Positions 6,108 through 61,845 of a stretch of DNA of 64,000 nucleotides are shown piece by piece. Position 1 is the stretch's first letter. Every line of letters begins with the position of its first letter. Source of the DNA: Eledone cirrhosa. Lineage: Eukaryota. Under the pieces are notes generated by a model, which was given only the letters and a program-made list of their open reading frames with translations, made no database searches and was not told the origin of the DNA. The DNA lies in NCBI GenBank assembly GCA_964016885.1, contig OZ024741.1, forward strand, positions 291,896,001 to 291,960,000. The letters run 5' to 3'. Position numbers and translations under genes: made by a program.

Positions 6108-9100
6108 AAATCGGCCGATTTGACCTGGCCGATAGATATCGACTAGATTTTCCGACTGTGCCACTGTGGACGTGGACTAATCGTAGCGGAACATCTAGAT
6201 CGTACCTAGATAGGGTTCTAGTTAGAAATAAAGATAGGGACATGTTAAGCTGTCCACAAATGTTCATGGTTTTCTATTCAGATCACAAACTAGTGACCTG
6301 CATGGTCAACCTTGATAAAACCCATAGACAAGGACCCGGCTACTGGAAGCTGAACTTGTCGTTACCGACATGCAAAGCCTACAGTAGACGGATTAGCACT
6401 TAGTTAAACAGCACTTGACAGGGGTCATTGTTAACAACAGATGGTGGTACTCTCTCAAGAGGGCAGTTAGATTAGACTCGATAGTTTTTAGTAAAGAATT
6501 AGCGTTAGATAGAAATAGAACCGAGAAGGAACTGGTAGATAAAGTAGAAGAGGCAATTAGAAGTGGCAACGTAGTCAGCGTGCTAGCAACGAGAACAGCC
6601 TTGGACCAGTTTTTCGACGCAAAGCACGAGGGCTGCGTTGTCAGAAGCAAAATACGTGCTCTGGGTAACGAGGGAGCCAAAGCTGTTAGCTGGGCCCGGG
6701 TGACGGAGACGAAAAGTGGCAACAAGTCCACAATTCGGTCTTTGAAGGATCAAGACGGACGCGTGATACGTGAGCCGAAGCAGATGTGCGCCGCCTTTCA
6801 GCGGCACTTTGCTCAGCCGTTCGGGCAGGGAGGCGCGCCGGGAGCGGCTAAGGATTTCGGTCCATACCTCGACGGCCTATCGCCACTCTCGGACCCCGAG
6901 GCGAAGTTCTGTGAAAGGCCGATTTCGGTCGCTGAGATAGGGGACGCGCTGAGCCAATGCGGCAAACGCAAATCTCCAGGTCTCGACGGTCTACTCTGCG
7001 AATTTTACGTAGCAATGCCGGACTTGTTCTCTGTTCTCCTGGAGGCGGTCTACTGCAACTGGCAGAAGAACGGGAGAATTCCCAGTTCTGTGACCAGGGG
7101 CGTAGTCACGCTAGTCAGGAAGGGCGAGAATAAGAAGGATAACATAGGCAACTTACGGCCCATAAATCTGCTAAACACAGAGTTACAGATTTTGGGCAAG
7201 GTGTTTTCAAAGAGGCTGGCGCTTGTCGTCAAAAACCTGGTGGGAGAAGCGCAGACATGCGCAATCCCCACCAGGTCCATACATGACAACCTCCACCTCA
7301 TGCGATACATCGTAGAGAGGTTGGGTGTAAACCAGGCTTCGGTGGAGCCCTGATCAACTGGGATCAGTCTAAGGCTTTCGATAGGGTTGGCCATCGTTAC
7401 CTGGATGCGGTACTCGAGGCGGTACTTCGGACCCGTGTTCAGGGGCTGGATTGTTGCAATGCACAGCAGCAACATCTGCTCAAGTGTCAAGGTGAACGGC
7501 TACCTCTCGGAGCCATTCCATACCACGCAATCCATTCGACAGGGATGCCCTCTCTCCACCCTTCTGTACGTACTGACTCTCAAGCCACTACTGCGGAAGC
7601 TGGAGCTATTGTAGGGCATCCCTCTGGAACCGAGACTGCGGAAAGCGGCGTCGTCCTATGGCGACGACGTTTCAGTAATGGTGTCGTGCACCTCGCAAAT
7701 CGAGGAAGTCGGCACCTTACTGAAGGAATACGAAAGGTTCACAGGAGCGAAGCTGAACCGGGACAAGTGCATCGGTTTGCAACTCGGATCGTGGAGAGGC
7801 AAACCGATGCCTTCCGATAGCGACGTGGGACGCTGGAGGGAAGGACCGGTAAAGCTGCACGGGGACTGGTTTGGTCCGGACCTCCAGGTGGAGAAGAACT
7901 GGAACGAGGTGGCGGCCAAGGTGTTTGCACTCACCCAGAAGTGGGCCGAGTGCAAGCTATCCTTGAAAGGTCGAGCGGAGTTGACGAACACTTTTATAGC
8001 GTCCGTCATCTACTACCGCTTGACCGTCGTGCCTTGTCCAGCCAAAACGCTCACCAAAATGGAGCGCGCGCTATTCCAATTCCTTTGGAAGAAGCGGGCT
8101 CCTTTGGTGAGAAGATCCATCTGGTGCCAACACCCTTCCAACGGAGGGCTGGGGAAGCCGTGGCTGACGATGCGCAAACACCAGCTCAAGCTGCGGCATC
8201 TCTACGTATTCCTCACCGGACAACCGGTGTGGGCCCCGTTCGTGAGGTGAGCGTTCCCACGACTCGTCAAGGTGACCGAGCTGCAGGCCTGGGTCAAGCA
8301 AAGACCGAGGAAAATGGGCAACTGGCACATCGAATGTGCTCAGGCGCTCACAGCCCTCTGGCAAGCGGACCCGGCGATCAGTGGAGACTCCATTTCGTCA
8401 TTCTATAGAGGGTTGATCCGCAGCAAGTGCGACGACGCGCTCGGAGAAACTCTAGGCGTAGAGGAAGATGAACTGTCCAGTCTGTTCAGTAGGACCTTCC
8501 GCCCGGGACCGATGGACAACTTCCAAAAGTCCCTGGCCTGGCAGTGCTACCGAGGAGCTCTACCAGTTCGAGACAAGCTCTACAGACATGGGCGCCCGGG
8601 CAGGGACCCTTCGAAAAAGATCTGTCCGAGATGCGTGCGAGACGAAGAAACCGTCGCGCACGCATTTATACACAGCCCGGGCATTACCGACCTGTGGGGC
8701 TATGTAGAACGACTATTGTCGAGGGTGGGGCCAATCCGGTTGACCACCGAGTCCATTGTCATGATCAAACCACCTCCCTCCTTCAAAAACGAAGTAGGGG
8801 CTGTTTTCCTTTGTTTGATATCTATGGCGAAAGAGGTTGTATGGTGGACGAGGTTGAAAGGGCTGAGGTCAGACACCTTTCTCTCTGGCCAACAACTGAT
8901 TCTTTTTTTCAAATACCACTTTGGAAGAAGAATCAGGATGGTGAGAGAGGTGCTGTACCCCAGCAAGTTTTATGAAATGTGGGTGAAATTGGCGAGAATG
9001 GCCCGAGTGAATGGGCCTTCTCTCTATATCAGCCTGTAGGTTGAGGGAAAAGAGGAAGAGAAGAAAGGGGTACAAACTCTTCGTACTCCTGGATATGAGG

Positions 9101-9278
9101 GTTGCACATTTTTTCGGGGGTATGTGTTACCCATATGAAATATCTCCTCCTATTGGTGGAAAATCGATTAATTTTTAAATTGCATTTGTGATAGTGTTTT
9201 ACACGTTTTTATCGTATGTAAACTTCCCCCTTTGTATTTGTCCCCTTCTTTTGTGCCCCTGTGGCTAATAAAGAAACA
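6108..9278 (+). mobile_element. Tx1/L1-clade non-LTR retrotransposon, 5'-truncated, disrupted ORF2
   Basis: APE C-terminus (SYLDRVLV, SDHK, GPGYWKLN), RT (KSPGLDGL, LRPINLLN, RQGCPLS, YGDD at 7657-7668), zinc knuckle CPRC..ETVAH; 3' UTR ends AATAAAGAAA; stops and frameshifts. Confidence 0.93.
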
Positions 9279-9301
9279 TATCTATCTATCTCTCTCTCTC
9301 T

Positions 9302-9359
<58 letters not shown>

Positions 9360-9817
9360 ATATATATATATATGTATATATATATACAGTATATATATAT
9401 ATATATACAGGCGTAAATAAAGTAACAGTAGAAATTGCTTCAGGGGTAGCTGAATCTGTAGATTTTACCGTTAACTTCTGTTCCTCATCATATAATAAAT
9501 ACATTACACCTCACTTACTGACCTACGAAACGCGCCATTAGAGAATACGCACGGTTCAACATAGCAATGGTTACTACACTTTCCAGTTGTTTAACCAAGC
9601 ATTCCAAAGCTGAAGGAAGTGTGTATACTAGCAAGGCTACAAGAACACACAGTCATTCACTTATATATATATATGTGTGTGTGTGTACGTGTGTTTATCT
9701 AATACCATAGATTAAATAATATATCAAAGAAAGAGAGAGGGTGAGAGATAGATACAGGGTCGTGGTATATAGATTAAAAACCTGTATTTTAACAAATATC
9801 TGGAAATATAAACAGGA

Positions 9818-9872
<55 letters not shown>

Positions 9873-9876
<4 letters not shown>

Positions 9877-10251
9877 TATGTACACGTACATACATATATG
9901 TATACAGACGTACAGTAGTATGTATATATATATACATACATGCACACATATATATATGTACGTATGGATTCACCGAACATTTAATATAATGCTCGGTGTG
10001 ATTGTAAACAAACATCCCGTATTAAGCCGTAGTGTCCAGCAACCATCGTTGCTCATTTGTTCAACACTGACAAAGGAACGCTGTACTAGTTTCAAGCTCA
10101 TTAGCTATCGTCAGCAACGTATACCTTCCTGTCAAATTGTTGAACGTATATACTTACCTTATGCATATTAACGGCTGAGTAGCCCAATTTGCATATCGAG
10201 TGGGTTAATCGGCCGGGTGCACCGAAAACGATAAACAGAAAAAATGAAACG
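9873..10251 (-). mobile_element. Partial copy (~0.9 unit) of the ~425-bp HHR retrozyme-like repeat
   Basis: Near-identical to 53387-53771; flanked by (TA)n; same 3' junction (catactta|tata). Confidence 0.9.
10078..10120 (-). ncRNA. Minimal type I hammerhead ribozyme
   Basis: ACGTTG CTGACGA T AGCT aatg AGCT T GAAA CTAG TA^CAGCGT: stem I, intact core, stem II, palindromic ACTAGT stem III. Confidence 0.85.
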
Positions 10252-10258
10252 ATATATA

Positions 10259-11003: not shown

Positions 11004-11127
<124 letters not shown>

Positions 11128-11154
11128 GTATGTGTGTGTGTATATATATATATG

Positions 11155-12424
11155 TGTTTCTTTATTAGCCACAGGGACACAAAAGAAGGGGACAAATACA
11201 AAGGGGGAGTTTACATACAATAAAAACGTGTAAAATATTATCGCAAATGCAATTTAAAAATTAATCGTTTTTCCCCAATAGAGGGAGACAGTTCATATGG
11301 GTAGCACATACCCCCGAAAAAAAAATGTGCAACCCTCAACTCCAGGAGTACGAAGAGTTTGTACGCCTTTCCTCTCCTCCTCTTTTTCCTCAACCTACAG
11401 GCTGATATAGAGAGAAGGCCCATTCACTCGGCCATTCTCGCCACTTTCACCCACCTTTCATAAAACTTGCTGGGGTACAGCACCTCTCTCCATCCTGATT
11501 CTTCTTCCAAAGTTTTATTTGAAAAAAAGAATCAGTTGTTGGCCGGAGAGAAAGGTGTCTGACTTCAGCCCTTTCAACCTTGTCCACCATACAACCTCTT
11601 TGGCCATAGCTATCACACAGGAAAACCCCCTCTCCTTCGTTTTTGGAGGTGGCGGTTTGATCATGACAATGGACTCGGTGGTCAACTGGATTGGTCCCAC
11701 CCGCGAAAATAGTCGTTCCACAGAGCCCCACAGGTCGGTGACGCCCGGGCAGTTTATGAATGCGTGCGCGACGGTTTCTTCGTCTCGTACGCACCTCGGA
11801 CAGATCTTTTTCGAAGGGTCCCTGCCCGGGCGCCAATGTCTGTAGAGCTTGTCTGGAACTGGTAGAGCTTCTCGGTAGCACTGCCAGGCCAGGGACATTT
11901 GGAAGTTGTCCATCGGTTCCGGGCGGAAGGTCCTACCGAACAGACTGGCCAGTTCATCTTCCTCTACGCCCAGAGTTTCACCGAGCACGTCGTCGCACTT
12001 GCTGCGGATCAACCCTCTATAGAATGACGAAGTGGAGTCTCCACTGATCGCCGAGTCCGCCTGCCAGAGGGCTGTGAGCGCCTGAGCACATTCGATGTGC
12101 CAGTCGCCCATTTTGCTCGGTCTTTGCTTGACCCACGACTGCAGCTCGGTGCACGAGACGAGTCGTGGTAAGGCTCGCCTCGCGAACGGGGCCCCCACCG
12201 TTGTCCGGTGAGGAATACGTAGAGATGCCGCAGCCTGAGCGCGTGTTTGCGCATCATCACCCACGGCATACCCATCCCTCCGTTGGAAGGGCGTTGGCAG
12301 CAGATGGATCTTCTCACCAAAGAAGCCCACTTCTTCCAAAGGAATTGGAATAGCGCGCGCTCCATTTTGGTGAGTGTTTTGGCTGGACAAGGCACGACGG
12401 TCAAGCGGTAGTAGATGACGGACG
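11155..12424 (-). mobile_element. Second, shorter Tx1/L1 copy of the same family (3' 1.27 kb)
   Basis: Reverse complement of ~8000-9278 at high identity (VIYYRLTVVPCPAKTL, ICPRCVRDEETVAHAFINCP); same AATAAAGAAA terminus. Confidence 0.93.
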
Positions 12425-16170: not shown

Positions 16171-16560
16171 TTTCCCAGTTTAATGTCGGATGCTTATATA
16201 TTTATATATAGGTGTCAATGTGCGCATGTGTGGGAAAGGGGGAAGGGAGGAGGGCAAGAGATAAGATGAGATATGGGTGTTTATAATCATGTCTCATTAT
16301 ATATGCCGAGGTTAACTTTGCCTTTCATCCTTACGTGGTCGATGAAATAAAGTACCAGTAATACACTGGGATAATTGCTGGCCTTGTGCCAAAAGTAGAA
16401 ACAATTATATATATATATTTATTCATATATATTTATTTATTCACACTCCACACACTCGGATATATATACAAACACATTTATACGATTTCACTCACACATA
16501 CACACACAAACGCGCACAGACACACACACACACACACACACACATACATACATATATGTA

Positions 16561-21936: not shown

Positions 21937-22126
21937 CGCGTAAAGCGAATGAGACAAGTAAACAACAAGAAGGAAAAGCAAACCGAAGGTAGGAAAAAAG
22001 CAAGCAACATGATGGTTATCCGATCAGCATGAACTGGGTGAATTTCATGAGCGGTCAGAAAACAGACCGTTCGACGTGAATGAGATGTGAGAAAGAAAGA
22101 ATATATATATATATATATATATACAA

Positions 22127-22285
22127 GTATGACCCCGACGGCAGAGCTCAAGCCGTTTCGACCGTCGAAACGGCTTTAGCTCTGCCGTCGGGGTCATACA
22201 TGTTCCTATTACCGACTCTACTACCCTAAGTATTGAGTACTTTGATGCGTTATGGTCCATCTGGTTCCTTACCACATTTCCTTCG

Positions 22286-22328
<43 letters not shown>

Positions 22329-22497
22329 AACCAGTAAGACCCCGACAGCTGAGCTCAAGCCGTTTCGAATTAGCCGTCGAAACGGCTTGAGCTCAGCTGT
22401 CGGGGTCTTACTGGTTCCTATTACCCACTCTACTACCTCAAGTATTGAGTACTTTGGTGCGTTATGGTCCACCTGGTTCCTTACCACATTTCCTTCG

Positions 22498-22500
<3 letters not shown>
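22127..22500 (+). mobile_element. Two tandem fold-back insertions of one PLE-type 3'-end family (22127-22288, 22324-22500)
   Basis: Palindromes 22127-22199 and 22324-22421 centred just 5' of tcGAAAC; each continues as a ~80-90-nt tail ending ttcgtta|(TA)n. Confidence 0.88.
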
Positions 22501-22541
<41 letters not shown>

Positions 22542-22552
22542 TATATATATAT

Positions 22553-23368
<816 letters not shown>

Positions 23369-23567
23369 TAATAAATTAATATATATGTATATATATATAT
23401 ATAATATTAAGGATTCTATTTATGGTTATGTATATACTAAAACTTTTTATAGTTACGTATATTTTAAACCCTAAACAGTGAAGATCAGTAATTTATTACT
23501 ACCTTATTACCAGTAACATAAATAGCTCAATGTAATAACATCAGTTGTTCTACAGAGCAGTTATATG

Positions 23568-30642: not shown

Positions 30643-32592
30643 CATATTTGATATAAGAATAATGTTAAAGGACGTTTATTAATTTAAAGTGATTGACCTT
30701 TGGATAATATCTATTGGAAGGGTTAAACTGTCTGAAAAATACTCCTGCGGGCTGAGACAGCCATGCTGGTAAATACTTCACCGTTGAGGGATATCGATGA
30801 AGGATAAATACGTTTTGAGATCCCGTCTGGTTAATCACAATGCAAAGGAGGGATCTTATCACATGGAGTGATTCCCCAAACACATCACTTCATTCTATTT
30901 CTGGCAGTCTTTCATGAAGGGATGGCAATTGTTATTGTTCTCCACAGAGTTCCATTTCCATATTCCACTCCACTGTAGAATGTCACAGTGGGATGTTCAT
31001 AGTTACGTCCCTTTACGATCTGAGTTCAAATCCCGCCGAGGTTGACTTTGCCTTTCATCCTTACGGGGTTGATAAAATAAAGTACCAGTAATGCACTGTG
31101 TAATTGCTGTCCTTGTGCCTAAAGTAGAAACAAAAAATATTATTGCTCTCCCGAGACATAAATTGTTAACCCTAGTCTGAGAGGATTGAAGCTGGAGCAG
31201 TAAACGCAGAAGATATATGGTATTTAAAAGACAGGGATTTACTATAGCAGCTGCCATAGCTGAACATGCAAATACAAAGGGATATCTTGAGTATTCACAA
31301 ATAATTATTAATATGATTTAGACGATTATATGTATGAACCAGTAACTCCCGAAAAACTCGTAGGGGCACCGTATTAGCATACGGTGTTTCTAGGGCATTT
31401 TAAAATCTGGCGAAGCCCATCTCCTTTCCAGGTTTGAATGCATCAGATTTCTTCTAGAGAAGGATGGAGAGTGAGTAAATGGAAATGAGAGAGATATAAT
31501 GAATTCCCTACTTTTAGATGATAATAGAGGGCATTTAACTTCGATACTGAAACATGAGAAGTAATAGGAGTTGAAGTAGTTTCGATTAAGAAATGTAGAA
31601 AATATGACACACACTACCAAGCCATACTCGGTTGTAAGTGTCGGCTAAAATTAGTAAATATTATTTTAGCATTAAGGCTTTCATCCTTACGGCGTCGATA
31701 AAATAAAGTACCAGTAATGCACTGGATAATTGCTGGCCTTGTGCCTAAAGTATTAACAATTATTTTAGCATTAAGGCGGTGGATTCGCAGAGTCGCTAGA
31801 AAATCGGATATAATGCTTTGCGGTATTCGTTTCGTTTCTCTTCTCTCAGTTCAAATCCCGACAAGGTCAACTTTGCCTTTCATTTAGTCGAGGTCGATAA
31901 AAAAAAGTACCAGTCCAGTACTAGGGTGATTCTTCTTCAATATTTCTTTCTCACTTCCTTTCTCTCATTCTCTATCCTTCACTGGAAGAAATCTTCTGGA
32001 TGCAGACCTGGAGAGGAAATGATCTCCGCGAGGTTTAAAAATGCCCTAGAAAAGTTATATGTCAATATAGTAACCTTATGACTTCTCCAGAGGTTACAGG
32101 TCCATGCAGGCATTTTTGCATCACAAGGCATCGGCTAATAAACGACGAGTATAAATCATTGCGGGTTGGGTTGGGTTTATTGTGCATGTTGTATCCCATG
32201 TAACGTACGGATGATAGTCATTGTTCAATGTAATGTTGAATCTAATCTCCTTCAAACAGAAATAAATTTAACCAAACTCCAATAATATCGTTTAGACAGG
32301 CGTCAGCTTCGTCGATATTATTATCGGAAATTATATCATCGATCACCGATTGAAAAGTACTTAGCATTAGGCACAGGAAAGGGCAACGTTGTAAACTGAC
32401 AGAAGAGTCAATCAGTTTGATAAGAGGTTTATCTCATAGTTTACTAATTTGCTCAGTAACTAATTAGAAACTATTCGGGATGAACATTTGGTGTATTGTA
32501 GAAAGAAACTAATAGTGGAGAACTTAATTAATTCTCCAATATATAAATATATAATTAATTCTCCAATATATATATACATAATTAATTCTCCA

Positions 32593-32641
<49 letters not shown>

Positions 32642-32646
32642 TATAT

Positions 32647-32708
32647 CAGTCCTGAAATAGCCGTCGAAACGGCTTGAGCTCTGCTGTCGGGTTCATACTT
32701 TTCCCTTA
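32647..32708 (+). mobile_element. Single short arm of the 22.1-kb fold-back family
   Basis: gaaatagccgtcGAAACggcttgagctctgctgtcgggttcatac within (TA)n. Confidence 0.85.
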
Positions 32709-32736
32709 TATATATATATATGATATCTATATATAC

Positions 32737-32841
<105 letters not shown>

Positions 32842-33391
32842 CATATATATTTATATATATATATATACATATAATATATATATATATATGATATATATAT
32901 ATATATATACATATTATATATATATACACATATATATACATATTTACACACACACAAACATATATATATATATATACATAAGTGGCGACACAAGCTCTCA
33001 GGTTAGTCATACATACATATATAAGTATAGTTATTGTAAATATACAGACGCTAAAGACAAGGTTAATTGCCTGGAAAATTATCATCTTTAATAGCAATAG
33101 CTCCTGTCAGAACTTTAAACATTTAAAGAGAGATGAAGGAGATGTAGAGCGAAGAAGTAATAGCACAGTGAATATGATGGTGTCAGGGTCAATAGATTCG
33201 ACTTGGGTCACACTTCAATGTATGACCACTGACAGGAGTGGGCTGGAGCGATGACTATATTTGAGGACGGTAGACCGTTACCCAATCAACGCTGCCATTA
33301 CTAGACACATACAAAAAAAAACATTCACATACATACATGCCTGCACACAAAAACACAGACACACAGGGCCACATATATATATATATATATA

Positions 33392-33703
<312 letters not shown>

Positions 33704-42132: not shown

Positions 42133-42209
<77 letters not shown>

Positions 42210-42253
42210 AAGTTAAATAAAAGTCAAATGATTAAAATTTAGCTTCGTTTATT

Positions 42254-42308
42254 ACTGCTATATATATTTCAGTGACAGCCATCTTTGGCTGTGACCTCTT
42301 CAGGCAGT
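42254..42308 (-). ncRNA. Minimal type I HHR, inverted pseudo-LTR copy
   Basis: Exact mirror of 47786-47840. Confidence 0.88.
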
Positions 42309-43917
42309 TTGAATTAGTATGGTATAGACAAGTACATATGTTGTTTAGGTGTATGATATTGTCAATACTCTGATATGCCCAGTTCCTTGTTGGGTTGTTA
42401 ATTCACTGGGGAACTGGAGTCATATGAATTCAAACAAACGAATTTTAGTGTCACAGGTCCCCTTCTCCTCTCATTGGTCAGTTATTAGTGTTGTCATTGT
42501 TGGAGTTAGCTTAAAAATTGATAAAATGGTAGAAGGGACAAGGTGTTGAAGGAACAAAATATCAAAAAATGTGTCAAACTTCCCATTGTTCAGTTCTGAG
42601 AGCATTCCTCAGTCAGAAGTCTATAGAATTCTTTCTGGGGTGAGGCTCCCTGTAGTGTTTATGCCTGCTATTGTTCAGTACATTTGACCTCGACCATTAT
42701 TTTGGTACTGTTGTTGTTGTAGTGGTCAGCTTATATCTTGCTGCTGCTAACAGTTTAGAAGTATTCAGTTTGTGTTTTCTCTTCATCCCACCCGCCACCA
42801 TCGTAGTGGTGGTGGCGGGGGGGGGGGGGGTTATTTCATGTATATGAAGAAATATAAGGCAATAAATGAAGAAAACAGAAGATAAATAAATAATATAATA
42901 AAATAAAATAATTAATATAATTTGTGTAATTTGAAAATAAATAAATAAATAGAGAATAAAGAATAAAGAGTAAATGAGAGATTGGTGAAAAAGTAATGAT
43001 AATGTATATGGAGAAGTGAGAAATAATGTAGGATAAAGTGTGTGTGTGTGTGCTATAACCAATCTCAAGGTCAGAATATGTTGGATAGATTGGTATGATA
43101 CAAGATGTTAAGATGAGATATTCAATGTGATTGTGTTATAATCTATCTCAACTTAAAATAAATATAAATATAAGGTTATACAGTGAAGAGGGCAGAAAAC
43201 AAATAACAAATTAATAAAGAGAAATCAAGATTTAAGATTGGAACTTTAAAGTCAGAAATCTGGTAAATTAAAAGTGTTTGTGTTATAGATGTTGGCCAGA
43301 TTATTATGGCTGTGTCCGATTCTGTCTCTAGGCTATCATGGTGTCTGCTCCGCCTGGGTTGTTCCCTATGGCTTGAGGGGAGTTCACAACCTAGGGTGTT
43401 GTAATTGTCCATATAGCTTGAGGGAGGTCTGGCCGAGAGGTGTTTTCATGTTCTGTAGAAGTCCCTATAGCTTGAGGGGAGTTCACATCTTCTTGTGTTG
43501 CTACTGTCCATATATTTTGAGAAAGGTCCCGGCTCTAAGGTGTCTGCATGTCCCGAAGAAGTCGGTTCTGAGGTTTATCAGGCCGCTTCCACCTCTTAGT
43601 ATCTCGAGGGTCTCGTTCAGGCATAGTTTGCATATGCAAGATCCCCCTTTATCGGGTGGTACTTTCCTGATTATGTACCAGGCCAGAGAGTATGGGGTCC
43701 TGTCCAGCTTAAGCTTCCAGATCAGGTCGGAGAGAGCTGTGCTTTTCCTTTTGGCCTCCTTCTTGAATGAATGGCGATGGTTGTACCAGCGGTCCTTAAA
43801 GCTCGTTGATGCTCCAGCCTGCATACTGAGGTGTTGGTATACAACCAACATAAACTCAAAATCTATCTAGCTCCCACACGGGTTGAGCGCTTCAAACAGT
43901 AGCGGACCTAAGTCACT

Positions 43918-46596
43918 ATGGATAAACTGGCAACCTTAGCGTCACTGAAGGACATCCCCCTACCTGATAAACGAGAATACACCAGTGATCTCATCAAGAG
44001 TACGGACTCCCTCATCCGTAGGATGAGATGGAAGGCGTTCCACTTCGAAAGAGGAACGCAGAAAACTACAAACACAGAAAACATGGAGTACCTTTTTCGA
44101 TCAAGGAGGAATCCCCCCCATAACAGACTAATGGAGGAGTTTGAAAACGAGATGATTAACATCATATCCAACCTCAAATTCTCCGGAAACCCAACCAGAA
44201 GTCAGGAGTACCTCAGACACCTGAGAAACCGGATTACAGTACTTAAAGGGACAACTGGAATACTTGTCCATGCTGACAAAACAAACAACCTCTACAACAT
44301 GAACACTGAACTGTACAATAAGCTAATCCCCAGGGAACTGAGGAAGTGCTACAAAAAAACACCTGGATTTACCCTGGATGAGATCAATGCCACAGCTTAC
44401 AGGATTATATCCAGAATCGGCATAGAGGACAGGACGGCCCCATACCAACCAAGGGAGCCGCGGATTACCCTTAAAGACCACAAGTCAAACTTTGAGTCCG
44501 ACCTCCCTGTCAGACTAATAGCCCCCTCCAGATCTGACCTAGGGATCGTCAGTAAAAGAATACTGGATAGGATTTTGCCCAAGCTTCGGAAAAAAACCAA
44601 ATTACAGCAATGGTCATGCACGAGAGAAGTAATAGAATGGTTCAAAATACTGCAGGAGAAAAGTAGGACCAGCTTTATACAACTGGACATCGCAAGCTAC
44701 TACTCCTCAATCTCACCCATAGTACTTAATAAGGCCCTATTTTTAGCGATGTCCAATACGGACCTAACCCGAGAGGAGGTGAGCATCATCCACGCCGCAA
44801 GAAAGACCTTAATCCACTTCGATGGAGACCTGTGGACCAGGAGTGATTGGCCAAATAACTTTGACATCACGATGGGCTCCAGCGACTCAGCGCAGGTAAC
44901 GGACCTGGTTGGGCTCTACCTGCTGAAGCAGATAAAAGATGAAATCCCCTGCCTGGGCGGCGGATTATATCGTGACGATGCTCTATTCACAGTACATGAC
45001 CACAGCACCAATATGTTGGAGGGTATGAGGAGGCGTATTCGCCATTTCTTTAAGAACCAGGGGCTCAGCATAGAAATAGACCCAAATAGGAAGGTAGTTA
45101 ACTTCCTAGATACCACCCTAAACCTGAACACCGAGCAATACTACCCCTACCACAAGCCCAACGAGAAACTAGTATATGTTAACGCCAAATCAAACCACCC
45201 TAGATCCATAACCAAGGCAGTGGTGAAGAGTGTCTCGGACAGGATCTCCAGCCTGTCCGCAAGTAAGGAAATATTCAACAACCACGCGGAATATTACAAC
45301 GCAGCTCTAAAGAAGGCGGCACATGGACAAAATATAACATATAGTCCGAAAAGCCGGGAGGTGGATAGCCCAACAGACACCCACAACCGCGTTACCAGAG
45401 GGGGGAGGGCGAACCCTAACAATACAGGCAGAGCAAAATCAAATAAGCACCATGTACCAGACACCACCACATGGGCGGCGGGGACTAGTGCGCTTGACCA
45501 CGAGATGGAGCACAATATGAGTAGCAGTCTCAGGCGTGATGCTAACTACCCCAGGACGGACAACCCCAACCGCAGGACACGTGGGGGGGGAGGAAACGGG
45601 CGACCACCCCACGATGGATCTCCCGGGGCAGACAACAACCACCCCACAAATCCGGACCGTGAAGATAACAGAAAGTATAGAGCCCAAAAGGGAAGCAACA
45701 GTGCGGAAACCACCAGCAAACCAACAAATCTCCAACAAATCACGAAGCCCCCAACCCACACATATAGGAGGAGACACCGACAAATCACGTGGTACAACCC
45801 ACCCTACTCAGCGGCCCTAAAGAAAAGCTTGGCCCGATTGTTCTTTGGAGCACTTGACAAATGCTTCCCGAGGGACCACGGATACCACAGGATCTTCAAC
45901 AGACACACTGTGAAACTTTCGTATTCCACCACGAGAAATTTGGCCCAACACATAGCTAGCATCAACAGAAGTAGGCTTAAAAACCACACACAACCAGAAG
46001 ATGGCAATACAAACACTCAGCAGAACCATGTGAAAGGAAGAAAGGGGGGACCCAGAGCCCACCCAAGAAACACAAACAGACCCAAGGACCCCCCACCGAG
46101 CATGGGGGAAGACCAACATGTAACACATAATGAGAACCCTAATCTAAGCACGCAGAGGCCGCCCACCCTCTGCAACTGTAGAAACCCCGAATCATGCCCC
46201 CTTGGTAATGAATGTCTCAAGAAGAACATAGTGTACGGTTGTAGGGTTAAAACCCCCAACTCCGAACACCTCTACATAGGAGCCACATCAACGAGCTTTA
46301 AGGACCGCTGGTACAACCATCGCCATTCATTCAAGAAGGAGGCCAAAAGGAAAAGCACAGCTCTCTCCGACCTGATCTGGAAGCTTAAGCTGGACAGGAC
46401 CCCATACTCTCTGGCCTGGTACATAATCAGGAAAGTACCACCCGATAAAGGGGGATCTTGCATATGCAAACTATGCCTGAACGAGACCCTCGAGATACTA
46501 AGAGGTGGAAGCGGCCTGATAAACCTCAGAACCGACTTCTTCGGGACATGCAGACACCTTAGAGCCGGGACCTTTCTCAAAATATATGGACAGTAG
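43918..46596 (+). CDS. PLE polyprotein: reverse transcriptase + C-terminal GIY-YIG endonuclease (892 aa)
   Basis: FIQLDIASYYSSI (motif A), TMGSSDSAQVTDLVG (B'), GLYRDDAL (C), VNFLDTTL, YHKPN..YVNAKSNHP (thumb), CNCRNPESCPL..C, IVY..LYIGAT..R..H, CKLCLNE, CRH; no stops. Confidence 0.97.
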   Translation: MDKLATLASLKDIPLPDKREYTSDLIKSTDSLIRRMRWKAFHFERGTQKTTNTENMEYLFRSRRNPPHNRLMEEFENEMINIISNLKFSGNPTRSQEYLRHLRNRITVLKGTTGILVHADKTNNLYNMNTELYNKLIPRELRKCYKKTPGFTLDEINATAYRIISRIGIEDRTAPYQPREPRITLKDHKSNFESDLPVRLIAPSRSDLGIVSKRILDRILPKLRKKTKLQQWSCTREVIEWFKILQEKSRTSFIQLDIASYYSSISPIVLNKALFLAMSNTDLTREEVSIIHAARKTLIHFDGDLWTRSDWPNNFDITMGSSDSAQVTDLVGLYLLKQIKDEIPCLGGGLYRDDALFTVHDHSTNMLEGMRRRIRHFFKNQGLSIEIDPNRKVVNFLDTTLNLNTEQYYPYHKPNEKLVYVNAKSNHPRSITKAVVKSVSDRISSLSASKEIFNNHAEYYNAALKKAAHGQNITYSPKSREVDSPTDTHNRVTRGGRANPNNTGRAKSNKHHVPDTTTWAAGTSALDHEMEHNMSSSLRRDANYPRTDNPNRRTRGGGGNGRPPHDGSPGADNNHPTNPDREDNRKYRAQKGSNSAETTSKPTNLQQITKPPTHTYRRRHRQITWYNPPYSAALKKSLARLFFGALDKCFPRDHGYHRIFNRHTVKLSYSTTRNLAQHIASINRSRLKNHTQPEDGNTNTQQNHVKGRKGGPRAHPRNTNRPKDPPPSMGEDQHVTHNENPNLSTQRPPTLCNCRNPESCPLGNECLKKNIVYGCRVKTPNSEHLYIGATSTSFKDRWYNHRHSFKKEAKRKSTALSDLIWKLKLDRTPYSLAWYIIRKVPPDKGGSCICKLCLNETLEILRGGSGLINLRTDFFGTCRHLRAGTFLKIYGQ

Positions 46597-47785
46597 CAAC
46601 ACAAGAAGATGTGAACTCCCCTCAAGCTATAGGGACTTCTACAGAACATGAAAACACCTCTCGGCCAGACCTCCCTCAAGCTATATGGACAATTACAACA
46701 CCCTAGGTTGTGAACTCCCCTCAAGCCATAGGGAACAACCCAGGCGGAGCAGACACCATGATAGCCTAGAGACAGAATCGGACACAGCCATAATAATCTG
46801 GCCAACATCTATAACACAAACACTTTTAATTTACCAGATTTCTGACTTTAAAGTTCCAATCTTAAATCTTGATTTCTCTTTATTAATTTGTTATTTGTTT
46901 TCTGCCCTCTTCACTGTATAACCTTATATTTATATCTATTTTAAGTTGAGATAGATTATAACACAATCACATTGAATATCTCATCTTAACATCTTGTATC
47001 ATACCAATCTATCCAACATATTCTGACCTTGAGATTGGTTATAGCACACACACACACACTTTATCCTACATTATTTCTCACTTCTCCATATACATTATCA
47101 TTACTTTTTCACCAATCTCTCATTTACTCTTTATTCTTTATTCTCTATTTATTTATTTATTTTCAAATTACACAAATTATATTAATTATTTTATTTTATT
47201 ATATTATTTATTTATCTTCTGTTTTCTTCATTTATTGCCTTATATTTCTTCATATACATGAAATAACCCCCCCCCCCGCCACCACCACTACGATGGTGGC
47301 GGGTGGGATGAAGAGAAAACACAAACTGAATACTTCTAAACTGTTAGCAGCAGCAAGATATAAGCTGACCACTACAACAACAACAGTACCAAAATAATGG
47401 TCGAGGTCAAATGTACTGAACAATAGCAGGCATAAACACTACAGGGAGCCTCACCCCAGAAAGAATTCTATAGACTTCTGACTGAGGAATGCTCTCAGAA
47501 CTGAACAATGGGAAGTTTGACACATTTTTTGATATTTTGTTCCTTCAACACCTTGTCCCTTCTACCATTTTATCAATTTTTAAGCTAACTCCAACAATGA
47601 CAACACTAATAACTGACCAATGAGAGGAGAAGGGGACCTGTGACACTAAAATTCGTTTGTTTGAATTCATATGACTCCAGTTCCCCAGTGAATTAACAAC
47701 CCAACAAGGAACTGGGCATATCAGAGTATTGACAATATCATACACCTAAACAACATATGTACTTGTCTATACCATACTAATTCAA

Positions 47786-47840
47786 ACTGCCTGAAGAGGT
47801 CACAGCCAAAGATGGCTGTCACTGAAATATATATAGCAGT
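47786..47840 (+). ncRNA. Minimal type I HHR in PLE 3' pseudo-LTR
   Basis: ACTGC CTGAAGA GGTCACAGCCA aaga TGGCTGTCACT GAAA T ATAT A TA^GCAGT; predicted cut after 47835. Confidence 0.88.
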
Positions 47841-48001
47841 AATAAACGAAGCTAAATTTTAATCATTTGACTTTTATTTAACTTTATTTTACACTACTCC
47901 GGAGTAACCAAACCAACCTGCGCACTTCGTCGAGTGCTCCAGCCTGCATACTGAGGTGTTGGTATACAACCAACATAAACTCAAAATCTATATATATATA
48001 T

Positions 48002-48810
48002 AAATATAAATTAGCGAGAATCGTATTTCGGTTTTGGAAATTAGCGAAAAACAACTTCCGAGATGTGTGGCAAGCGCTCAATAAATTCTAACGAACCAGA
48101 GCTACAACATACGTTAAAAGGCCAAACACACTGAGGCGATGGTTAAATCATTATCCGCACAGCCATAGAAACCACCAAGTAATTCGGGTCAAACAAATAA
48201 AAAAAATATTTAAAAAATATGATTGAAAAATTTACCCCGACCCCTGGATGGTTGGTGAAAGTCCAGCATTTGGGTTTCTGCGACTCCTAAATCAAGTACT
48301 GTGCGCTGAGACAAATAATGTTAAGCTTCTGGTAAGATGATTGGACAAGGAAGTCACTTTCTCAACAGGCTTTTAGTTCAAGTGCCAGGCCAAGGATTGA
48401 CTGTTGCCATACCCACGTGGGGCTCGACAAGGGAGGCAACCCTTATTTTTGGCGGATGAATTCAGTATATGTATATTATTGCAAAATTGCAAAATATCAC
48501 AAAACGAATTAAGTTCTCAACAGAATAGTTTTAAAGTTAACAAAAGATATTCATCAGTCAATAGAATCAACTAAAAAAATCAAGAAAATTAACTGGTCAA
48601 TAGCTAGACTCTGGAGATTAATACAAATATAAATTAGCGAGAATCGTATTTCGGCTTTGGAAATTAGCGAAAAACAACTTCCGAGATGTGTGGCAAGCGC
48701 TCAATAAATTCTAACGAACCAGAGCTACAACATACGTTAAAAGGCCAAACACACTGAGGCGATGGTTAAACCATTATCCGGACAGCCAAGTAATTCGGGT
48801 CAAACAAATA
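48002..48810. repeat. ~190-bp direct repeats (48002-48199, 48625-48810), period 623 bp
   Basis: Near identical apart from a 12-bp indel; diverged relative at ~21570-21690. Confidence 0.9.
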
Positions 48811-49153
48811 CAAGATGTCTTCTCTTATCTCCTATTTCTATCTATCTCTCAAACTCACTCACAATAGCTTAAACAAATACAGGCTTTCAAAAATCACTCT
48901 CTTTCTCCCCAAATCCCTTCCTTTATCTGTATCTCCCTCACTCCCACTTTAGTTCTCATCACCTCTCTCTACCACTCTTCGCACTGCTTCTGACATATAT
49001 TCTAAGGACATTAATACATTTAAAATGACGTTTCTTCTCTAATTATTTTAACAATGCAGAAAATCATCCATTGGCTCTCACACTGTCTACATTGCATTCT
49101 TTCTTATAGTCATTCCAGTTATCTTTCACACATTCTCCCATTTCTCACTCACA

Positions 49154-49329
<176 letters not shown>

Positions 49330-49364
49330 ATATATATATATATAAATATATATATAAATATATA

Positions 49365-50060
49365 TATAAATGAAAAGTATAGAAATTATTATGAGCAAGA
49401 AGCACATAGTATTTCATAATATATAAGTGACTATAGCGTCAAAATGGGAAAATATTTAACGTAAGATGTGGGAAAAATAATTCAAACTCAATTCAAAAAG
49501 AATCAGGATATAGATTAATCCAACAGAATTTAGTGAAATCCAGGGAAAAATCAATAGAGCCTTAACTCATCACAAAATAAAGTTTTAAATACTCATCCTT
49601 CAATTTGTAAAAAACTACAAATGCTCTGTATAGTCTTGAAAATACTATTTCACGAAACTTTCAGTGGGCATGGTCACGGTTGGATCCGATCATCAGCAGA
49701 GCTCAACACGATAACCAAAATCTCACTGATTATAATATGCCAAAAAGGGAATTTAAAAGCAGGCTAGTTCAACATCATGCGTAATTATGAAAATAAAACG
49801 CACATGTGGAGACAGGACTGGTGACGGCAGAATGAGACGAATGTTTGTTTACATGAAATAACAGTAAAAAACATTCCGGAAAAAAACTCTACAATAAGGA
49901 GTTCAGCAAAAAGCAATATTATCGCGTTTTTTTTTTAAAAGACCGGGATTTGTCACAAATAATTTAAGCACTCTAGGAAAGAAATCCGAGTATAAATATA
50001 AATGAAAAGTATAGAAATTATTATGAGCAAGAAGCACATAGTATTTCATAATATATAAGT
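49365..50060. repeat. 64-bp perfect direct repeats (49365-49428, 49997-50060), period 632 bp, bounded by (TA)n
   Basis: tataaatgaaaagtatagaaattattatgagcaagaagcacatagtatttcataatatataagt twice. Confidence 0.92.
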
Positions 50061-50377: not shown

Positions 50378-50546
50378 TTTTTTCCGGGAGGGGTATATAT
50401 ATATATATATATATATATATGTAGGAGGTGAGTTTTATTGCAGTACAATAAAGCAATGCAGATATCGGATAAGAAGCACTCTACAGTTTGTGGGACTGGA
50501 GTATACATAATATATAAGAACAAAAGATGGTTAAAGGAGTTCCATG

Positions 50547-50617
50547 TATTTTATTATGCGCATTTCAAAAACAAATATCATCATGCAATAATATTTGTGT
50601 TTTCATCAGATAAAACA
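50547..50617 (-). ncRNA. Minimal type I HHR (left arm)
   Basis: Mirror of 50741-50811. Confidence 0.88.
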
Positions 50618-50740
50618 GGAGGACATGATATGAAGGCTAAAAAACACTTGTGGATAGTTCAGTTTTAAATCAACATATGATATGTTGATTTAAAACTGAA
50701 CTATCCACAAGTGTTTTTTAGCCTTCATATCATGTCCTCC

Positions 50741-50811
50741 TGTTTTATCTGATGAAAACACAAATATTATTGCATGATGATATTTGTTTTTGAAATGCGC
50801 ATAATAAAATA
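50741..50811 (+). ncRNA. Minimal type I HHR with ~16-bp stem II (right arm)
   Basis: TGTTTTAT CTGATGA aaacacaaatattatt gcat gatgatatttgttttt GAAA T GCGC A TA^ATAAAATA. Confidence 0.88.
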
Positions 50812-50839
50812 CATGGAACTCCTTTAACCATCTTTTGTT

Positions 50840-50877
<38 letters not shown>

Positions 50878-51499: not shown

Positions 51500-51975
51500 A
51501 GGCAATAAACATAAATGAATTACAACCAAAATTAAATAGAAAACATAAGTGGAACAGCAACATCACAACTTACAATTAAGGACAAAATGAAAACACACAC
51601 GCACATAGAACAAACAACAACCAGTAACATGTAAATAAACAAATAAATAAACGAATATAAACACACACAGACACCCAGGTGTAACACATGCACAAACTAA
51701 GCACACAGCACACACACAAAAAGAAGATGGCGTAGGACAGAACAAAGGAGAGGCACAAAACAAAGAAAAGAATCCCCAGTCACTGAAGAGGTCACATAAT
51801 GTGTGACGAAAAAACTTTGACAATATATAAACAACCATCTGGTTGTGGAACCAACCAACCAACCGGAAATTATAAATTCCTAAATTTATAAATTTATTAT
51901 AATAAATTGAAGCGAAAGCGACTGGTGCGTGTGTTTCTTATTGGCAACATGACCCTCCCAAAGTATAACAATATC
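51500..51975 (+). mobile_element. PLE pseudo-LTR-like segment with HHR at 51779-51821
   Basis: GTCA CTGAAGA g GTCACA taatg TGTGAC GAAA aaac TT^TGAC; homologous to 15000-15483; head-to-head with the ORF fragment. Confidence 0.72.
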
Positions 51976-52040
51976 GGTTTCAACACACGTTTTCAGATAA
52001 AGAATCTTGCTAAACAAATTCAGAAACGAAATATATATAT

Positions 52041-52124
<84 letters not shown>

Positions 52125-52497
52125 ACATGCACAAACAAATGTATACACACACAGTGGTAAGAAACTCTCAGGAGAGCGGGGCAGCAGGTCTTTAGAGAAA
52201 AACTGTCGCTCAACAGTTCAAGGGCCGAAACACCAACTTCTTGGAGGGGAGGTCCCTTCTCTGAAGGCCTTCTGCTGTTCAGCTCTTACCACTAAGACCG
52301 AAGAGACCACTAATCATGGGAGTACTCAATGCATGGAGATATGCAGAATGGATATAGAGATATGTAAAATTACGACTTGAACGTTCAGCAAGACTTTAAA
52401 CATATATATAAATTGTTGAAAAGGTTTGCTGAACACACAAGCCGAATCAGGTTAACACTGCGGTCGGGATTTTACATCTCTCTCTCTCTCTCTCTCT

Positions 52498-53260: not shown

Positions 53261-53340
53261 TGTGTGTACATATATAGTCCTTGTCAGGTTTAAAATTTCA
53301 TATTCGACATAAACATTCAATGTGTATAAGTGCGTGTATG

Positions 53341-53390
<50 letters not shown>

Positions 53391-53597
53391 TATGTACACG
53401 TACATACACATATGTATACAGACGTACAGTAGTATGTATATATATATATATATACATACATGCACATATATATATATGTACGTATGGATTCACGGAACAT
53501 TTATTATAATGCTCGGTGTGTTTGTAAACAAACATCCCGTATTAAGCCGTAGTGTCCAGCAACCATCGTTGCTCGTTTGTTCAACACTGACAAAGGA

Positions 53598-53640
53598 ACG
53601 CTGTACTAGTTTCAAGCTTATTAGCTATCGTCAGCAACGT
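53598..53640 (-). ncRNA. Minimal type I HHR (intact)
   Basis: ACGTTG CTGACGA T AGCT aata AGCT T GAAA CTAG TA^CAGCGT. Confidence 0.85.
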
Positions 53641-53959
53641 ATACCTTCCTGCCAGATTGTTGAACGTATATACTTACCTTATGCATATTAACGGCTGAGT
53701 AGCCCAATTTGCATATCGAGTTGGTTAATCGGCTGGGTGCACCGAGAACGGTAAACGGAAAAAATCAAACGAAATTTCATTTCCCACTCTTAGTACGGCT
53801 GTTATTTAAATATAAGTATGTACACGTACATACATATATGTATACAAACGTACAGTAGTATGTATATATATATATACATACATGCACACATATATATATG
53901 CACGTATGGATTCACCGAACATTTATTATAATGCTCAGTGTGTTGTAAACGTAAGGTAT

Positions 53960-54002
53960 ACGTTGCTGACGATAGCTAATAAGCTTGAAACTATTACAGC
54001 GT
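53960..54002 (+). ncRNA. Minimal type I HHR (G>T in stem III)
   Basis: As above but GAAA CTAT TA; predicted cut after 53996. Confidence 0.75.
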
Positions 54003-54383
54003 TCCTTTGTCAGTGTTGAACAAACGAGCAACGATTGTTGCTGGAAACTACGGCTTAATACGGGATGTTTGTTTACAAACACACCGAGCATTATAATAAA
54101 TGTTCGGTTAATCCATACGTGCATATATATCTGTGTGCATGTATGTATGTATATATATATACATACTACTGTACGTCTGTATACATATATGTATGTACGT
54201 GTACATACTTATATTTAAATAACAGCCGTACTAAGAGTGGGAAATGAAATTTCGTTTGATTTTTTCCGTTTACCGTTCTCGGTGCACCCGGCCGATTAAC
54301 CAACTCGATATGTAAATTGGGCTACTCAGCCGTTAATATGCATAAGGTAAGTATATACGTTCAACAATCTGGCAGGAAGGTAT

Positions 54384-54426
54384 ACGTTACTGACGATAGC
54401 TAATAAGCTTGAAACTAGTACAGCGT
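54384..54426 (+). ncRNA. Minimal type I HHR (G>A at base of stem I)
   Basis: ACGTTA CTGACGA TAGCT aata AGCTT GAAA CTAG TA^CAGCGT; predicted cut after 54420. Confidence 0.78.
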
Positions 54427-54748
54427 TACTTTGTCAGTGTTGAACAAACGAGCAACGATGGTTGCTGCACACTACGGCTTAATACGGGATGTTTGTTTAC
54501 AAACACACCGAGCATTATAATAAATGTTCCGTGAATCCATGCGTGCATATATATATGTGTGCATGTATGTATATATATATACATACAACTGTACGTCTGT
54601 ATACATATATGTATGTACGTGTACATACTTATATTTAAGTAACAGCCGTACTAAGAGTGGGAAATGAAATTTCGTTTCATTTTTTCCGTTTATATATATA
54701 TATATATATATGAATGTATATATAATGTATTTCAGAGCTCCAATTCTA

Positions 54749-60594: not shown

Positions 60595-60599
<5 letters not shown>

Positions 60600-60984
60600 G
60601 AGTATGTCAAAGAATGAGTTTTACAGTAGATTGGAAGCACTCTACGTTAAAAATATTTTTCCAGAGTCATTAATATTAAAATATAAATATTAATAAAATA
60701 GATGTTCTTTTGATCAATTACATTTTATTATACATATTTCAGATGTACAACAGTACGTCCTCATCAGACAAAATATAGTGATATATGACATACCCTGAGA
60801 TGTTAAATGGTTAAGATTTAATCATTACCTTGATTAAATCTTAACCGTTTAACATCTCAGGGTATGTCATGTATCATTATATTTTGTCTGATGAAGACGT
60901 ACTGTTGTACATCCGAAATATGTATAATAAAATGTAATTGATCAAAAGAACATCTATTTTATTAATATTTATATTTTAATATTA
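60595..60984. mobile_element. Fold-back insertion (palindrome 60671-60984, 154-bp arms, 6-nt loop) with two HHRs and a 76-nt tail on the left arm
   Basis: HHRs at 60722-60774(-) and 60881-60933(+): ATTTTGT CTGATGA (G/A)GACGTAC tgtt GTACATC(T/C) GAAA T ATGT A TA^ATAAAAT. Confidence 0.92.
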
Positions 60985-61725
60985 TATATATATATATATA
61001 TAATGTATAATAAACAATACAATATAATTACCTCATCTTACCCTCCGTTCTACTGTACGGTACTATCGTTCTATAATTTAAACATCTCCCTATTTATTAG
61101 TTATTATATGTACATATATTTTTTTACTTCCTTCAATCAAGATTTTTTTAATTTTTGATTTTTAATTTTTAGTTTTAATTTCTAATTCTCAATCATAATT
61201 TCCACAGAGAAACCATAATACCTAGAAATAAGTATATATTCTCTTATCCTACTTTCCATGCTTAATTTAGGGATAGTATTGAGACCTATTGAAACTCATA
61301 CTCTCCCACCCCCACTAGCTTTCGACCAAATGCCACTGGCAGGGTGGCTAGCAGTAAACTATAACCGTGTCATATAACAGACCTGGATGGGATGATTGTT
61401 TGGTTGAGAGGGGGACCTACCTAGGCGAGTTTTCGTAGAACTTTGGGGTAGTTTATGGTCAACTTCCTTCGGACTTGCGCCTGGGAGTGAATTGGGACTC
61501 ACAAGGGAACGGGCGAAGAATTCAAGAGCACAGGCTTTGTCCGTTCCCATGTCGATTCAATTTGGATTGCCTCGGAAACATAACCTTATTATGTAAGGAG
61601 CTGTCTGATGATGTGATGTCACGGCACTGGGCGTACCGAACCGTGTGGCCACCTTCGTCATTGAAATATGTATCACAGCATTATCATTAAAGGACTTTAA
61701 CATCTGAAACTACTTCGCTTTTTCT

Positions 61726-61845
<120 letters not shown>

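Follow-up and report, generated by a model that had tools for sequence, protein, structure and literature searches.

How does a Penelope-like element (PLE) come to consist of two inverted, nearly identical arms of which only one carries a tail, and what fixes the ends of such copies? For PLEs in general, the origin of the tail and of the tandem and inverted pseudo-LTRs is stated to be unresolved in the accessible part of PMC8557442, and two internal start sites have been found for one element while what sets them was not named (PMC11167929). That the tail sits on one arm only is known qualitatively (accessible parts of PMC8557442 and PMC3846280). We report that the copy in the analysed window (64,000 nucleotides of contig OZ024741.1 from Eledone cirrhosa) is a real, young, 5'-truncated Hydra-type Penelope element. 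Its features are as follows.

42136-42202, no strand: left target, a (CT)n(TA)n microsatellite; a target duplication is unreadable here.
42203-43811, minus strand: inverted arm, a copy of 46286-47891, tail-less, with its outer end at site A.
42253-42308, minus strand: hammerhead ribozyme motif of the inverted arm.
43810-43811, no strand: head-to-head junction with a 2-nt TG microhomology.
43810-43866, plus strand: 5'-truncated pseudo-LTR remnant (described earlier as a 57-bp direct repeat) that runs up to the site B copy in the leader.
43870-43892, plus strand: hairpin box 2 (GCUC-stem-loop-bulge-GAGC-GCUU), 3 nt 3' of site B, with a putative RT-positioning role.
43918-46596, plus strand: single ORF of 892 aa, predicted Hydra-type RT plus C-terminal GIY-YIG.
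43918-45351, plus strand: N-terminal and RT domains (RWK, DKT, GLYRDD).
45352-45765, plus strand: insert 1, residues 479-616, T/N/R/P/G-rich and of low confidence in the predicted model.
46000-46155, plus strand: insert 2, residues 695-746, likewise of low confidence in the predicted model.
46183-46593, plus strand: CxCX5C linker and GIY-YIG endonuclease (LYIG, CxxC..E, N..CxH), assigned by motifs.
46534-46734, plus strand: imperfect tandem duplication of ~100 nt that spans the stop codon.
47615-47669, plus strand: CCAAT box (47615-47624), followed at A47669 (TCA+1) by a likely transcription start, the latter suggested by a pile-up of the 5' ends of short copies.
47786-47841, plus strand: minimal type I hammerhead in the Hydra layout, predicted cut after 47835.
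47891, plus strand: site A, the short 3' terminus of family copies.
47892-47991, plus strand: 100-nt tail, its last base 47991 being site B, the long 3' terminus.
47896-47939, plus strand: hairpin box 1 (ACUC-stem-loop-UC-GAGU-GCUC), 4 nt 3' of site A.
47992-48003, no strand: right target, a short (TA)n followed by another repeat.

The preliminary description of this DNA had depicted a very recent element with an uninterrupted ORF, near-identical inverted arms each carrying a hammerhead, and a (TA)n target, and these points were borne out. The frame 43918-46596 (+) reads open for 892 aa, and comparison of arms 42203-43811 and 46286-47891 shows a single substitution (43161/46936) plus a 3-nt difference in a G-run (three extra C/G at 42828-42830). 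Minimal type I hammerhead motifs are present at 47786-47841 (+) and 42253-42308 (-), with a 5-bp stem I, CUGAAGA, stem II, UGAA and a palindromic stem III (AUAU/AUAU), and the element is bordered by (CT)n(TA)n at its left end and by a short (TA)n at its right end. As had also been noted, the inverted arm is cut just after the YIG codons, at the base equivalent to 46286, 5 nt past the LYIG codons. Recency agrees with a young, high-copy family and with the near-identity of the arms, whose divergence of 0.06% (95% interval 0.002-0.35%) may be lowered by conversion between them and so gives no absolute age. Two claims needed amendment. A junction microhomology exists, but it consists of 2 nt, TG (43810-43811), inside ~9 nt of imperfect likeness; and the 57-bp direct repeat (43810-43866 = 47935-47991), proposed to link leader and 3' terminus, is not a separate link: it is merely what 5' truncation has left of the upstream pseudo-LTR.

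Sequence searches of Pfam and PDB with the 892-aa ORF named neither RT nor GIY-YIG. A structure model built from 43 sequences (mean pLDDT 78.8) has TERT as its top Foldseek match (E 8e-9), and this predicted fold together with the GLYRDD motif identifies the ORF as a predicted RT, while its motifs mark it as a putative GIY-YIG endonuclease. Insert 1 is gapped in 42/42 homologs at the 4 columns checked, and the only two named homologs with an organism are both from octopods. RWK is present (RRMRWKAF), NLKF replaces GxKF and DKG is modified to DKT (ADKTN); the CxCX5C linker reads CNCRNPESC; and in the endonuclease CCHH is absent, CKLCLNE…INL…CRH giving CxxC/CxH beside E and N, with a single Cys before LYIG. 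The fingers are without insertion (D257-G320, 63 residues, visually co-linear with Hydra-1_Obim), the hammerhead near the 3' end matches the Hydra layout table, its cleavage being predicted, and the element inserts into (TA)n as Hydra elements do. The Hydra feature list in the accessible part of PMC8557442 comprises RWK, DKT, CxCX5C, CxxC/CxH, no CCHH, a hammerhead and (TA)n. With a longer UTR and two inserts the unit of 4125 nt exceeds the descriptive Hydra length (<3 kb). Penelope/Poseidon, Neptune and Nematis do not fit, the element being without DKG and without the CCHH endonuclease motif, and neither do Naiad/Chlamys (N-terminal endonuclease, CxC linker, usually hammerhead-less), the endonuclease here being C-terminal and a hammerhead present. 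Judged by motifs rather than by a reference tree, the element belongs to the Hydra clade, and the window copy is a new member of it.

The terminal 25-mer of the element has 4029 exact matches in the genome (control 0), and at least 97% of the ORF is covered at 97-100% identity in 28 of 40 scored places, which marks a young, high-copy family. The repeat unit, derived from 20 ORF-bearing loci, is 43867-47991. For the survey of ends, the first 100 matches of the 25-mer on one contig were used, giving 70 position-ordered loci unselected for length, all on one chromosome arm and each holding an exact 25-mer; these contain 74 insertions, namely 48 head-to-head inverted twins and 26 single arms. Family copies have two termini, 47891 (A) and, 100 nt further 3', 47991 (B), with positions blurred by ~2 nt through TA microhomology. 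Single arms ended at A in 17 cases, at B in 8 and elsewhere in 1. In the twins one end of each kind was found without exception: 40/40 classable twins pair A with B (19 AB, 21 BA, no AA or BB; P 2e-12; the 8/48 twins with an outer end elsewhere were omitted), and the window copy itself is A+B. Counts of such strict pairing were not found in the literature outside subscription journals. An extra (CT)n run stands behind 12/56 B ends (a single extra unit in three) vs 0/76 A ends, and could be due to reiterative copying at initiation or to later slippage.

Related copies at 88-99% occur in three DNA contig sets and one RAD read set, with microsatellites at the locus edges (RAD read ends at 47664 were excluded since they coincide with a GAATTC site); no relative was found among viral contigs, and no RNA run appeared among the listed carriers. 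Near-perfect arms beside microsatellites are what a misassembled inversion might look like, yet the same geometry recurs with different junctions at 48 other loci, the arms differ, and opposite-strand joints are also present in contigs of a public run, so that an assembly artefact is scarcely credible.

Each of the two sites is followed by a hairpin box, 4 nt 3' of site A and, in the leader, 3 nt 3' of site B. Its consensus is RCUC…NN-GAGY-RCU, that is, a variable short stem-loop, a 2-nt bulge, GAGY and then RCU; for box 1 the minimum-energy fold of the 44-nt stretch 47896-47939 yields this hairpin. Rfam gave no match in the window at gathering score and, at E of at most 1, chance matches only, both within the element and at four metagenome loci; hammerhead and boxes are therefore unmatched in Rfam. 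The box is present in 8/8 families examined in the genome. In the seven others, of which five have 35-43% and two about 50-54% protein identity, it occurs twice before the ORF, box 2 having been placed by eye in two families and put one motif off by the automatic search in the 784-aa family. TA-joined ends lie 2-5 nt before a box in 20/20 cases in a 713-aa family, 13/13 in the 784-aa family, 33/37 in the family at 60.6 kb (four lie elsewhere) and 1/1, 1/1 and 3/3 in three families with few ends.

The box extends beyond this genome. Metagenome relatives (58 loci with at least 110 nt before the ORF) gave 51 distinct leaders. Of these, 41 have at least one box and 28 at least two, usually spaced by 55-75 nt, whereas the antisense control gave 4 and shuffles 1.3; some of the 10/51 box-less leaders may be truncated or unrelated flank. 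The first inner pair, which was not selected for, forms in 68/72 boxes only with the 2-nt 3' bulge (48 C-G and 19 U-A; shuffle mean 53.6, max 59, 1000 shuffles), and inner pairs 2 and 3 likewise exceed all 1000 shuffles, all of these statistics being inflated by kinship among the leaders. At five metagenome loci a TA-joined end lies 0-8 nt before a box, the search having been made near boxes only. Among published consensus sequences Hydra-1_Ajap has both boxes, and Hydra-2_Amil and Hydra-2_Ajap have one each. The box likely marks where the telomerase-related RT begins copying. In the literature outside subscription journals neither the hairpin nor the A+B rule was found in print.

The boxes might instead signal endonuclease cutting and resolution of a cDNA/DNA intermediate, the tail then being made at resolution and not at initiation. 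The accessible part of PMC8557442 does ascribe the tail to EN-mediated resolution, earlier work cited in PMC11167929 holds that it is needed for EN recognition, and the box core is nearly palindromic. The bulge on the 3' side is strand-specific, however, the stem covaries as a single-strand fold, and the tail ends of Poseidon match measured RT start sites (PMC11167929); we regard this explanation as improbable.

At their other end the arms also stop non-randomly: 34/122 of the 5' ends fall in 47666-47670 and 38 lie further upstream. The pile-up base is the A of TCA, with the CCAAT box 50 nt upstream. A TCA+1 start is likewise seen in two other families, one of which has a TATA box at -31 with 12/28 arms beginning there. 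The pile-up and these motifs together suggest that A47669 is the likely transcription start. Three other causes of the pile-up were rejected. ATAT microhomology fails, as the other eight ATAT sites have 0-2 5' ends each. Hammerhead cleavage is predicted at 47835/47836, where only 6/122 ends lie nearby (47827-47843), and no stem pairs with 47669. A single founder stub is at odds with the several haplotypes that show the stop.

Both arms of a twin appear to derive from the same template. A five-site haplotype was common to both arms in 24/25 fully covered twins (expected fraction 0.35), the one discordant twin being L074, and with the two commonest haplotypes only, 17/18 twins were concordant (P 0.002). 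In 15/40 twins the stops of the two arms are no more than 12 nt apart (expected 4.1), and 10/40 share a 5' stop away from the hotspot (expected 1.0); a start-site stop paired with a read-through arm was seen in 0/40 (expected 4.8, P 0.002). Alternatively, the likeness of the arms could reflect gene conversion or one source active at a time, and microhomology joining may itself favour arms that end at one place. In 7/40 twins the B arm is too short to reach site A, and both arms must therefore have been primed separately.

This last observation bears on fold-back self-priming, in which one cDNA would form a hairpin and copy itself into the inverted arm. Such a process has been proposed for Adineta elements (accessible part of PMC3846280), and palindromic junctions are indeed common. 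It is contradicted by the 7/40 twins with non-overlapping arms; moreover, the B arm contains sequence missing from the A arm, and A+A and B+B twins are absent, which makes fold-back very doubtful.

The window copy has Hydra motifs, and its family shows two fixed ends, paired one of each in the twins, with a covarying hairpin beside each. The likeliest account, though not a certain one, is that two RT-endonuclease molecules, each probably seated on one hairpin of a single RNA, carried out priming on the two strands of a cut (TA)n target. Pol II would initiate at A47669 within the pseudo-LTR, and one protein would bind box 1 and another box 2. The endonucleases would cut both TA strands, and each 3'-OH would base-pair with a UA-rich stretch of 2-3 nt in the RNA immediately 5' of the box concerned. 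Both cDNAs would then extend 5'-ward on an overlapping template and join head-to-head by microhomology, in the window copy at a junction 1606 nt away from site A and 4182 nt away from site B. Linear RNA would give the abundant stubs of ~223/323 nt that stop at the start site. Long copies, including the window copy, would come from RNA without a 5' end at A47669, being either a hammerhead-made circle or a tandem read-through transcript.

A related scheme has an asymmetric complex with the same hairpins use two RNAs, one read from A and the other from B, usually from one source locus. It would yield strict A+B pairing just as well, it would accommodate the one discordant twin, and it would avoid the strand displacement that an overlapping template on one RNA needs. 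The shared off-hotspot 5' stops (10/40 against 1.0 expected), the absence of start-site/read-through mixtures and the haplotype concordance (24/25) speak against it, and we think it unlikely, if less so than the explanations dismissed above.

For the single-RNA reading, long copies are informative. None of 8 stops at the start site on the second lap (Fisher P 0.018; the 8 copies were chosen for holding the ORF), and B is the terminus of roughly half the arms that span the ORF, though in a finished copy no box 2 ever follows the 3' end. On both grounds long copies likely arise from a continuous template, be it a circle or a tandem transcript, and an LTR-like jump from the RNA 5' end is disfavoured.

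In a wider sense we lean, by a little, towards the duplicated hairpin being a telomerase-style template-positioning element through which two RTs prime opposite strands at fixed registers. If this were true, one rule would account for why PLEs have a one-sided tail and inverted pseudo-LTRs, and why short hammerhead stubs are so numerous; the hammerhead-made circle would supply the long copies, and the enzyme at site B may add (CT)n by reiterative copying before elongation.

The preliminary description had further cast the window copy as the likely autonomous driver, able to mobilise the neighbouring non-autonomous hammerhead repeats, and for this the data give no support. Since the sense copy begins at the base equivalent to 47935, no sense promoter, start site, hammerhead or site A/box 1 precedes the ORF. 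Apart from short motifs, nothing in the six neighbouring hammerhead repeats compared could be aligned to the 3' end of the window copy. Elsewhere in the genome, stubs 50421-50857 and 60596-60985 are continued by RT ORFs of their own, whose products are about 50-54% identical to the 892-aa protein, and stub 22633-23436 matches the 3' end of the 713-aa family, which has intact ORFs. In a tree of 21 aligned copies the window copy is a terminal leaf with 5 private substitutions, one of which puts Pro at residue 138 in a predicted helix, and with one sister (L021); no daughters carrying its private variants were found among these 21.

An active master acting in trans could be argued for from the unbroken full-length frame, which is found in 3/51 scored places including the window copy (frames of other copies often break at homopolymers, to which sequencing error may contribute), from the near-identical arms, and from hairpin boxes that span families, making cross-mobilisation conceivable. 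Set against this are the sense elements missing before the ORF, the leaf position with its private changes, and neighbours that own their ORFs. There is also a younger 819-aa family with many intact copies (of 27 fetched, 26 are at 99.5-100% identity to their nearest neighbour, with open frames), and the 1.6-kb inverted arms would be expected to fold read-through RNA into a long duplex. A master role for this copy is accordingly most improbable. It is unlikely to drive its neighbours, is ordinary as a copy and probably no master; at most it could supply protein from a read-through transcript, and the boxes common to the families leave cross-mobilisation possible but unneeded.

While the single window copy is ordinary, the value lies in an end rule at the level of the family that is specific and directly testable: a 20-45-nt hairpin a few bases 3' of each end, together with one-of-each pairing, lends itself to a mutate-and-shift assay. 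The hairpin rule would also give a sequence criterion for finding the ends of Hydra elements, would class many MITE-like hammerhead stubs anew, as cis by-products, and would provide, in a retroelement, a counterpart of the template positioning of telomerase, the sister enzyme. Precedents for its two halves exist: in L1 twin priming two primings at one break give an inversion, and in telomerase an RNA structure beside the template fixes the start of the RT. L1 arms, however, are non-overlapping and start at the poly(A) end, and telomerase has one site and one template.

Among PLEs, the element is by eye closest to Hydra-1_Obim of the Hydra clade of C-terminal EN+ PLEs (Craig et al. 2021, PMC8557442, accessible part, as for the following). 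It shares RWK, DKT, GLYRDDAL, CxCX5C, CxxC/CxH, the lack of CCHH, the hammerhead layout, (TA)n and an inverted 5'-truncated copy with that clade, as well as the hairpin boxes in three of the published consensus sequences. By contrast, Hydra elements are generally <3 kb, against a unit of 4125 nt and an 892-aa protein here; the two disordered inserts set the element apart from the clade description; and its tail has 100 nt instead of the 30-40 nt of other PLEs. In the accessible text that description contains no paired hairpins, strict A+B pairing or start-site stubs (PMC8557442).

For Poseidon_Ac (PAc) in vitro, internal initiation occurs at two sites equal to the genomic tail ends, both strands of an AT-rich target are cut and extended, and unprocessed RNA is used (Frangieh et al. 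2024, PMC11167929). Likenesses to the present family are the two internal starts that define the tail, a protein-binding RNA 3' of the start and a predicted dimer; PAc belongs to another clade, however, its start sites are inside the ORF and 30-40 nt apart, and its main text reports neither a duplicated RNA element nor a one-site-per-strand rule (PMC11167929).

The Penelope elements of Adineta vaga, as given in the accessible part of PMC3846280, similarly have two inverted pLTRs of which one bears a tail, together with palindromic junctions, an Inr-like motif in the pLTR and in-frame low-complexity inserts; they differ in the self-priming explanation offered and in target duplications that are readable there and not here. 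Finally, non-LTR retrozymes, for which circular RNA is reported, are also short non-coding type I hammerhead units from PLE pseudo-LTRs (bioRxiv 10.64898/2026.07.22.740005, accessible part). They form head-to-tail arrays, whereas the stubs described here are head-to-head twins or single arms, which we read as cis by-products of each family.

Many sister copies of the studied element, a Hydra-clade Penelope-like copy, have lost the reading frame within its low-confidence insert 1 (45352-45765), at positions where homopolymer runs are located, and their open frames end at approximately residues 575-636; this frame loss represents either real slippage or an assembly error. At one of the two fixed 3' termini of the family, site B, (CT)n runs, the longest of 15 units, were found between the terminus and the TA target (loci L036, L038, L071, L075, L081 and others); none were present at the other terminus, site A, and the flank opposite the (CT)n-bearing B end is without CT in the cases read. 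Possibly, these runs reflect repeat addition during initiation. The right flank of the element itself is a duplicated repeat (47998-48202 and 48621-48813, 92-95%), which starts immediately past the TA run.

The window also carries head-to-head hammerhead twins, i.e. inverted pairs of arms, of two other families. The twin at 50421-50857, where only one arm has a tail, belongs to a Hydra-type family with its own RT ORF (L230 and L238; ≈51% identity to the 892-aa protein) and the start TCA+1TATG. The third family, represented by the twin at 60596-60985, has its own ORF at L187 and a TATA box at -31 relative to its 5'-end pile-up, and the long arm of the window copy stops ≈20 nt before the usual B site.

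Stubs at 22101-23436 and 32539-33701 match the 713-aa family at its 3' ends (95.8% over 589 nt); their matches to related loci are weaker. Another hammerhead-bearing family (9823-10255 and 53337-54700) shows a complex arrangement of copies, in tandem and inverted, that are bounded by runs of TA. The hammerhead-like core in 49359-50060 has a 70-bp direct repeat on both sides.

Inverted pair and hammerhead-like cores in the window
22666-22854 / 23218-23407, inverted pair within the stub region 22101-23436
49696, minus strand, hammerhead-like core in 49359-50060
51783, plus strand, hammerhead-like core in 51709-52128
61605, plus strand, hammerhead-like core in 61300-61760

Other repeats comprise a broken non-LTR element (6397-9407 and 11031-12424; RVT_1 and zf-RVT matches that fall short of the cut-off), of which a second copy lies in inverted orientation (90.9%), and a dispersed repeat of ≈185 bp at 16305, 17382, 18022, 19815, 25344, 31001, 54836 and 60282, which by eye looks tRNA-derived, with a B-box-like stretch.

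Elsewhere in the E. cirrhosa genome, loci L197-L225 and L153-L164 hold many near-identical open copies of an 819-aa Hydra family, plus a 784-aa family, which also forms a tandem array of four units (contig C1:437200456-437213151). These two families are the better candidates for current activity.
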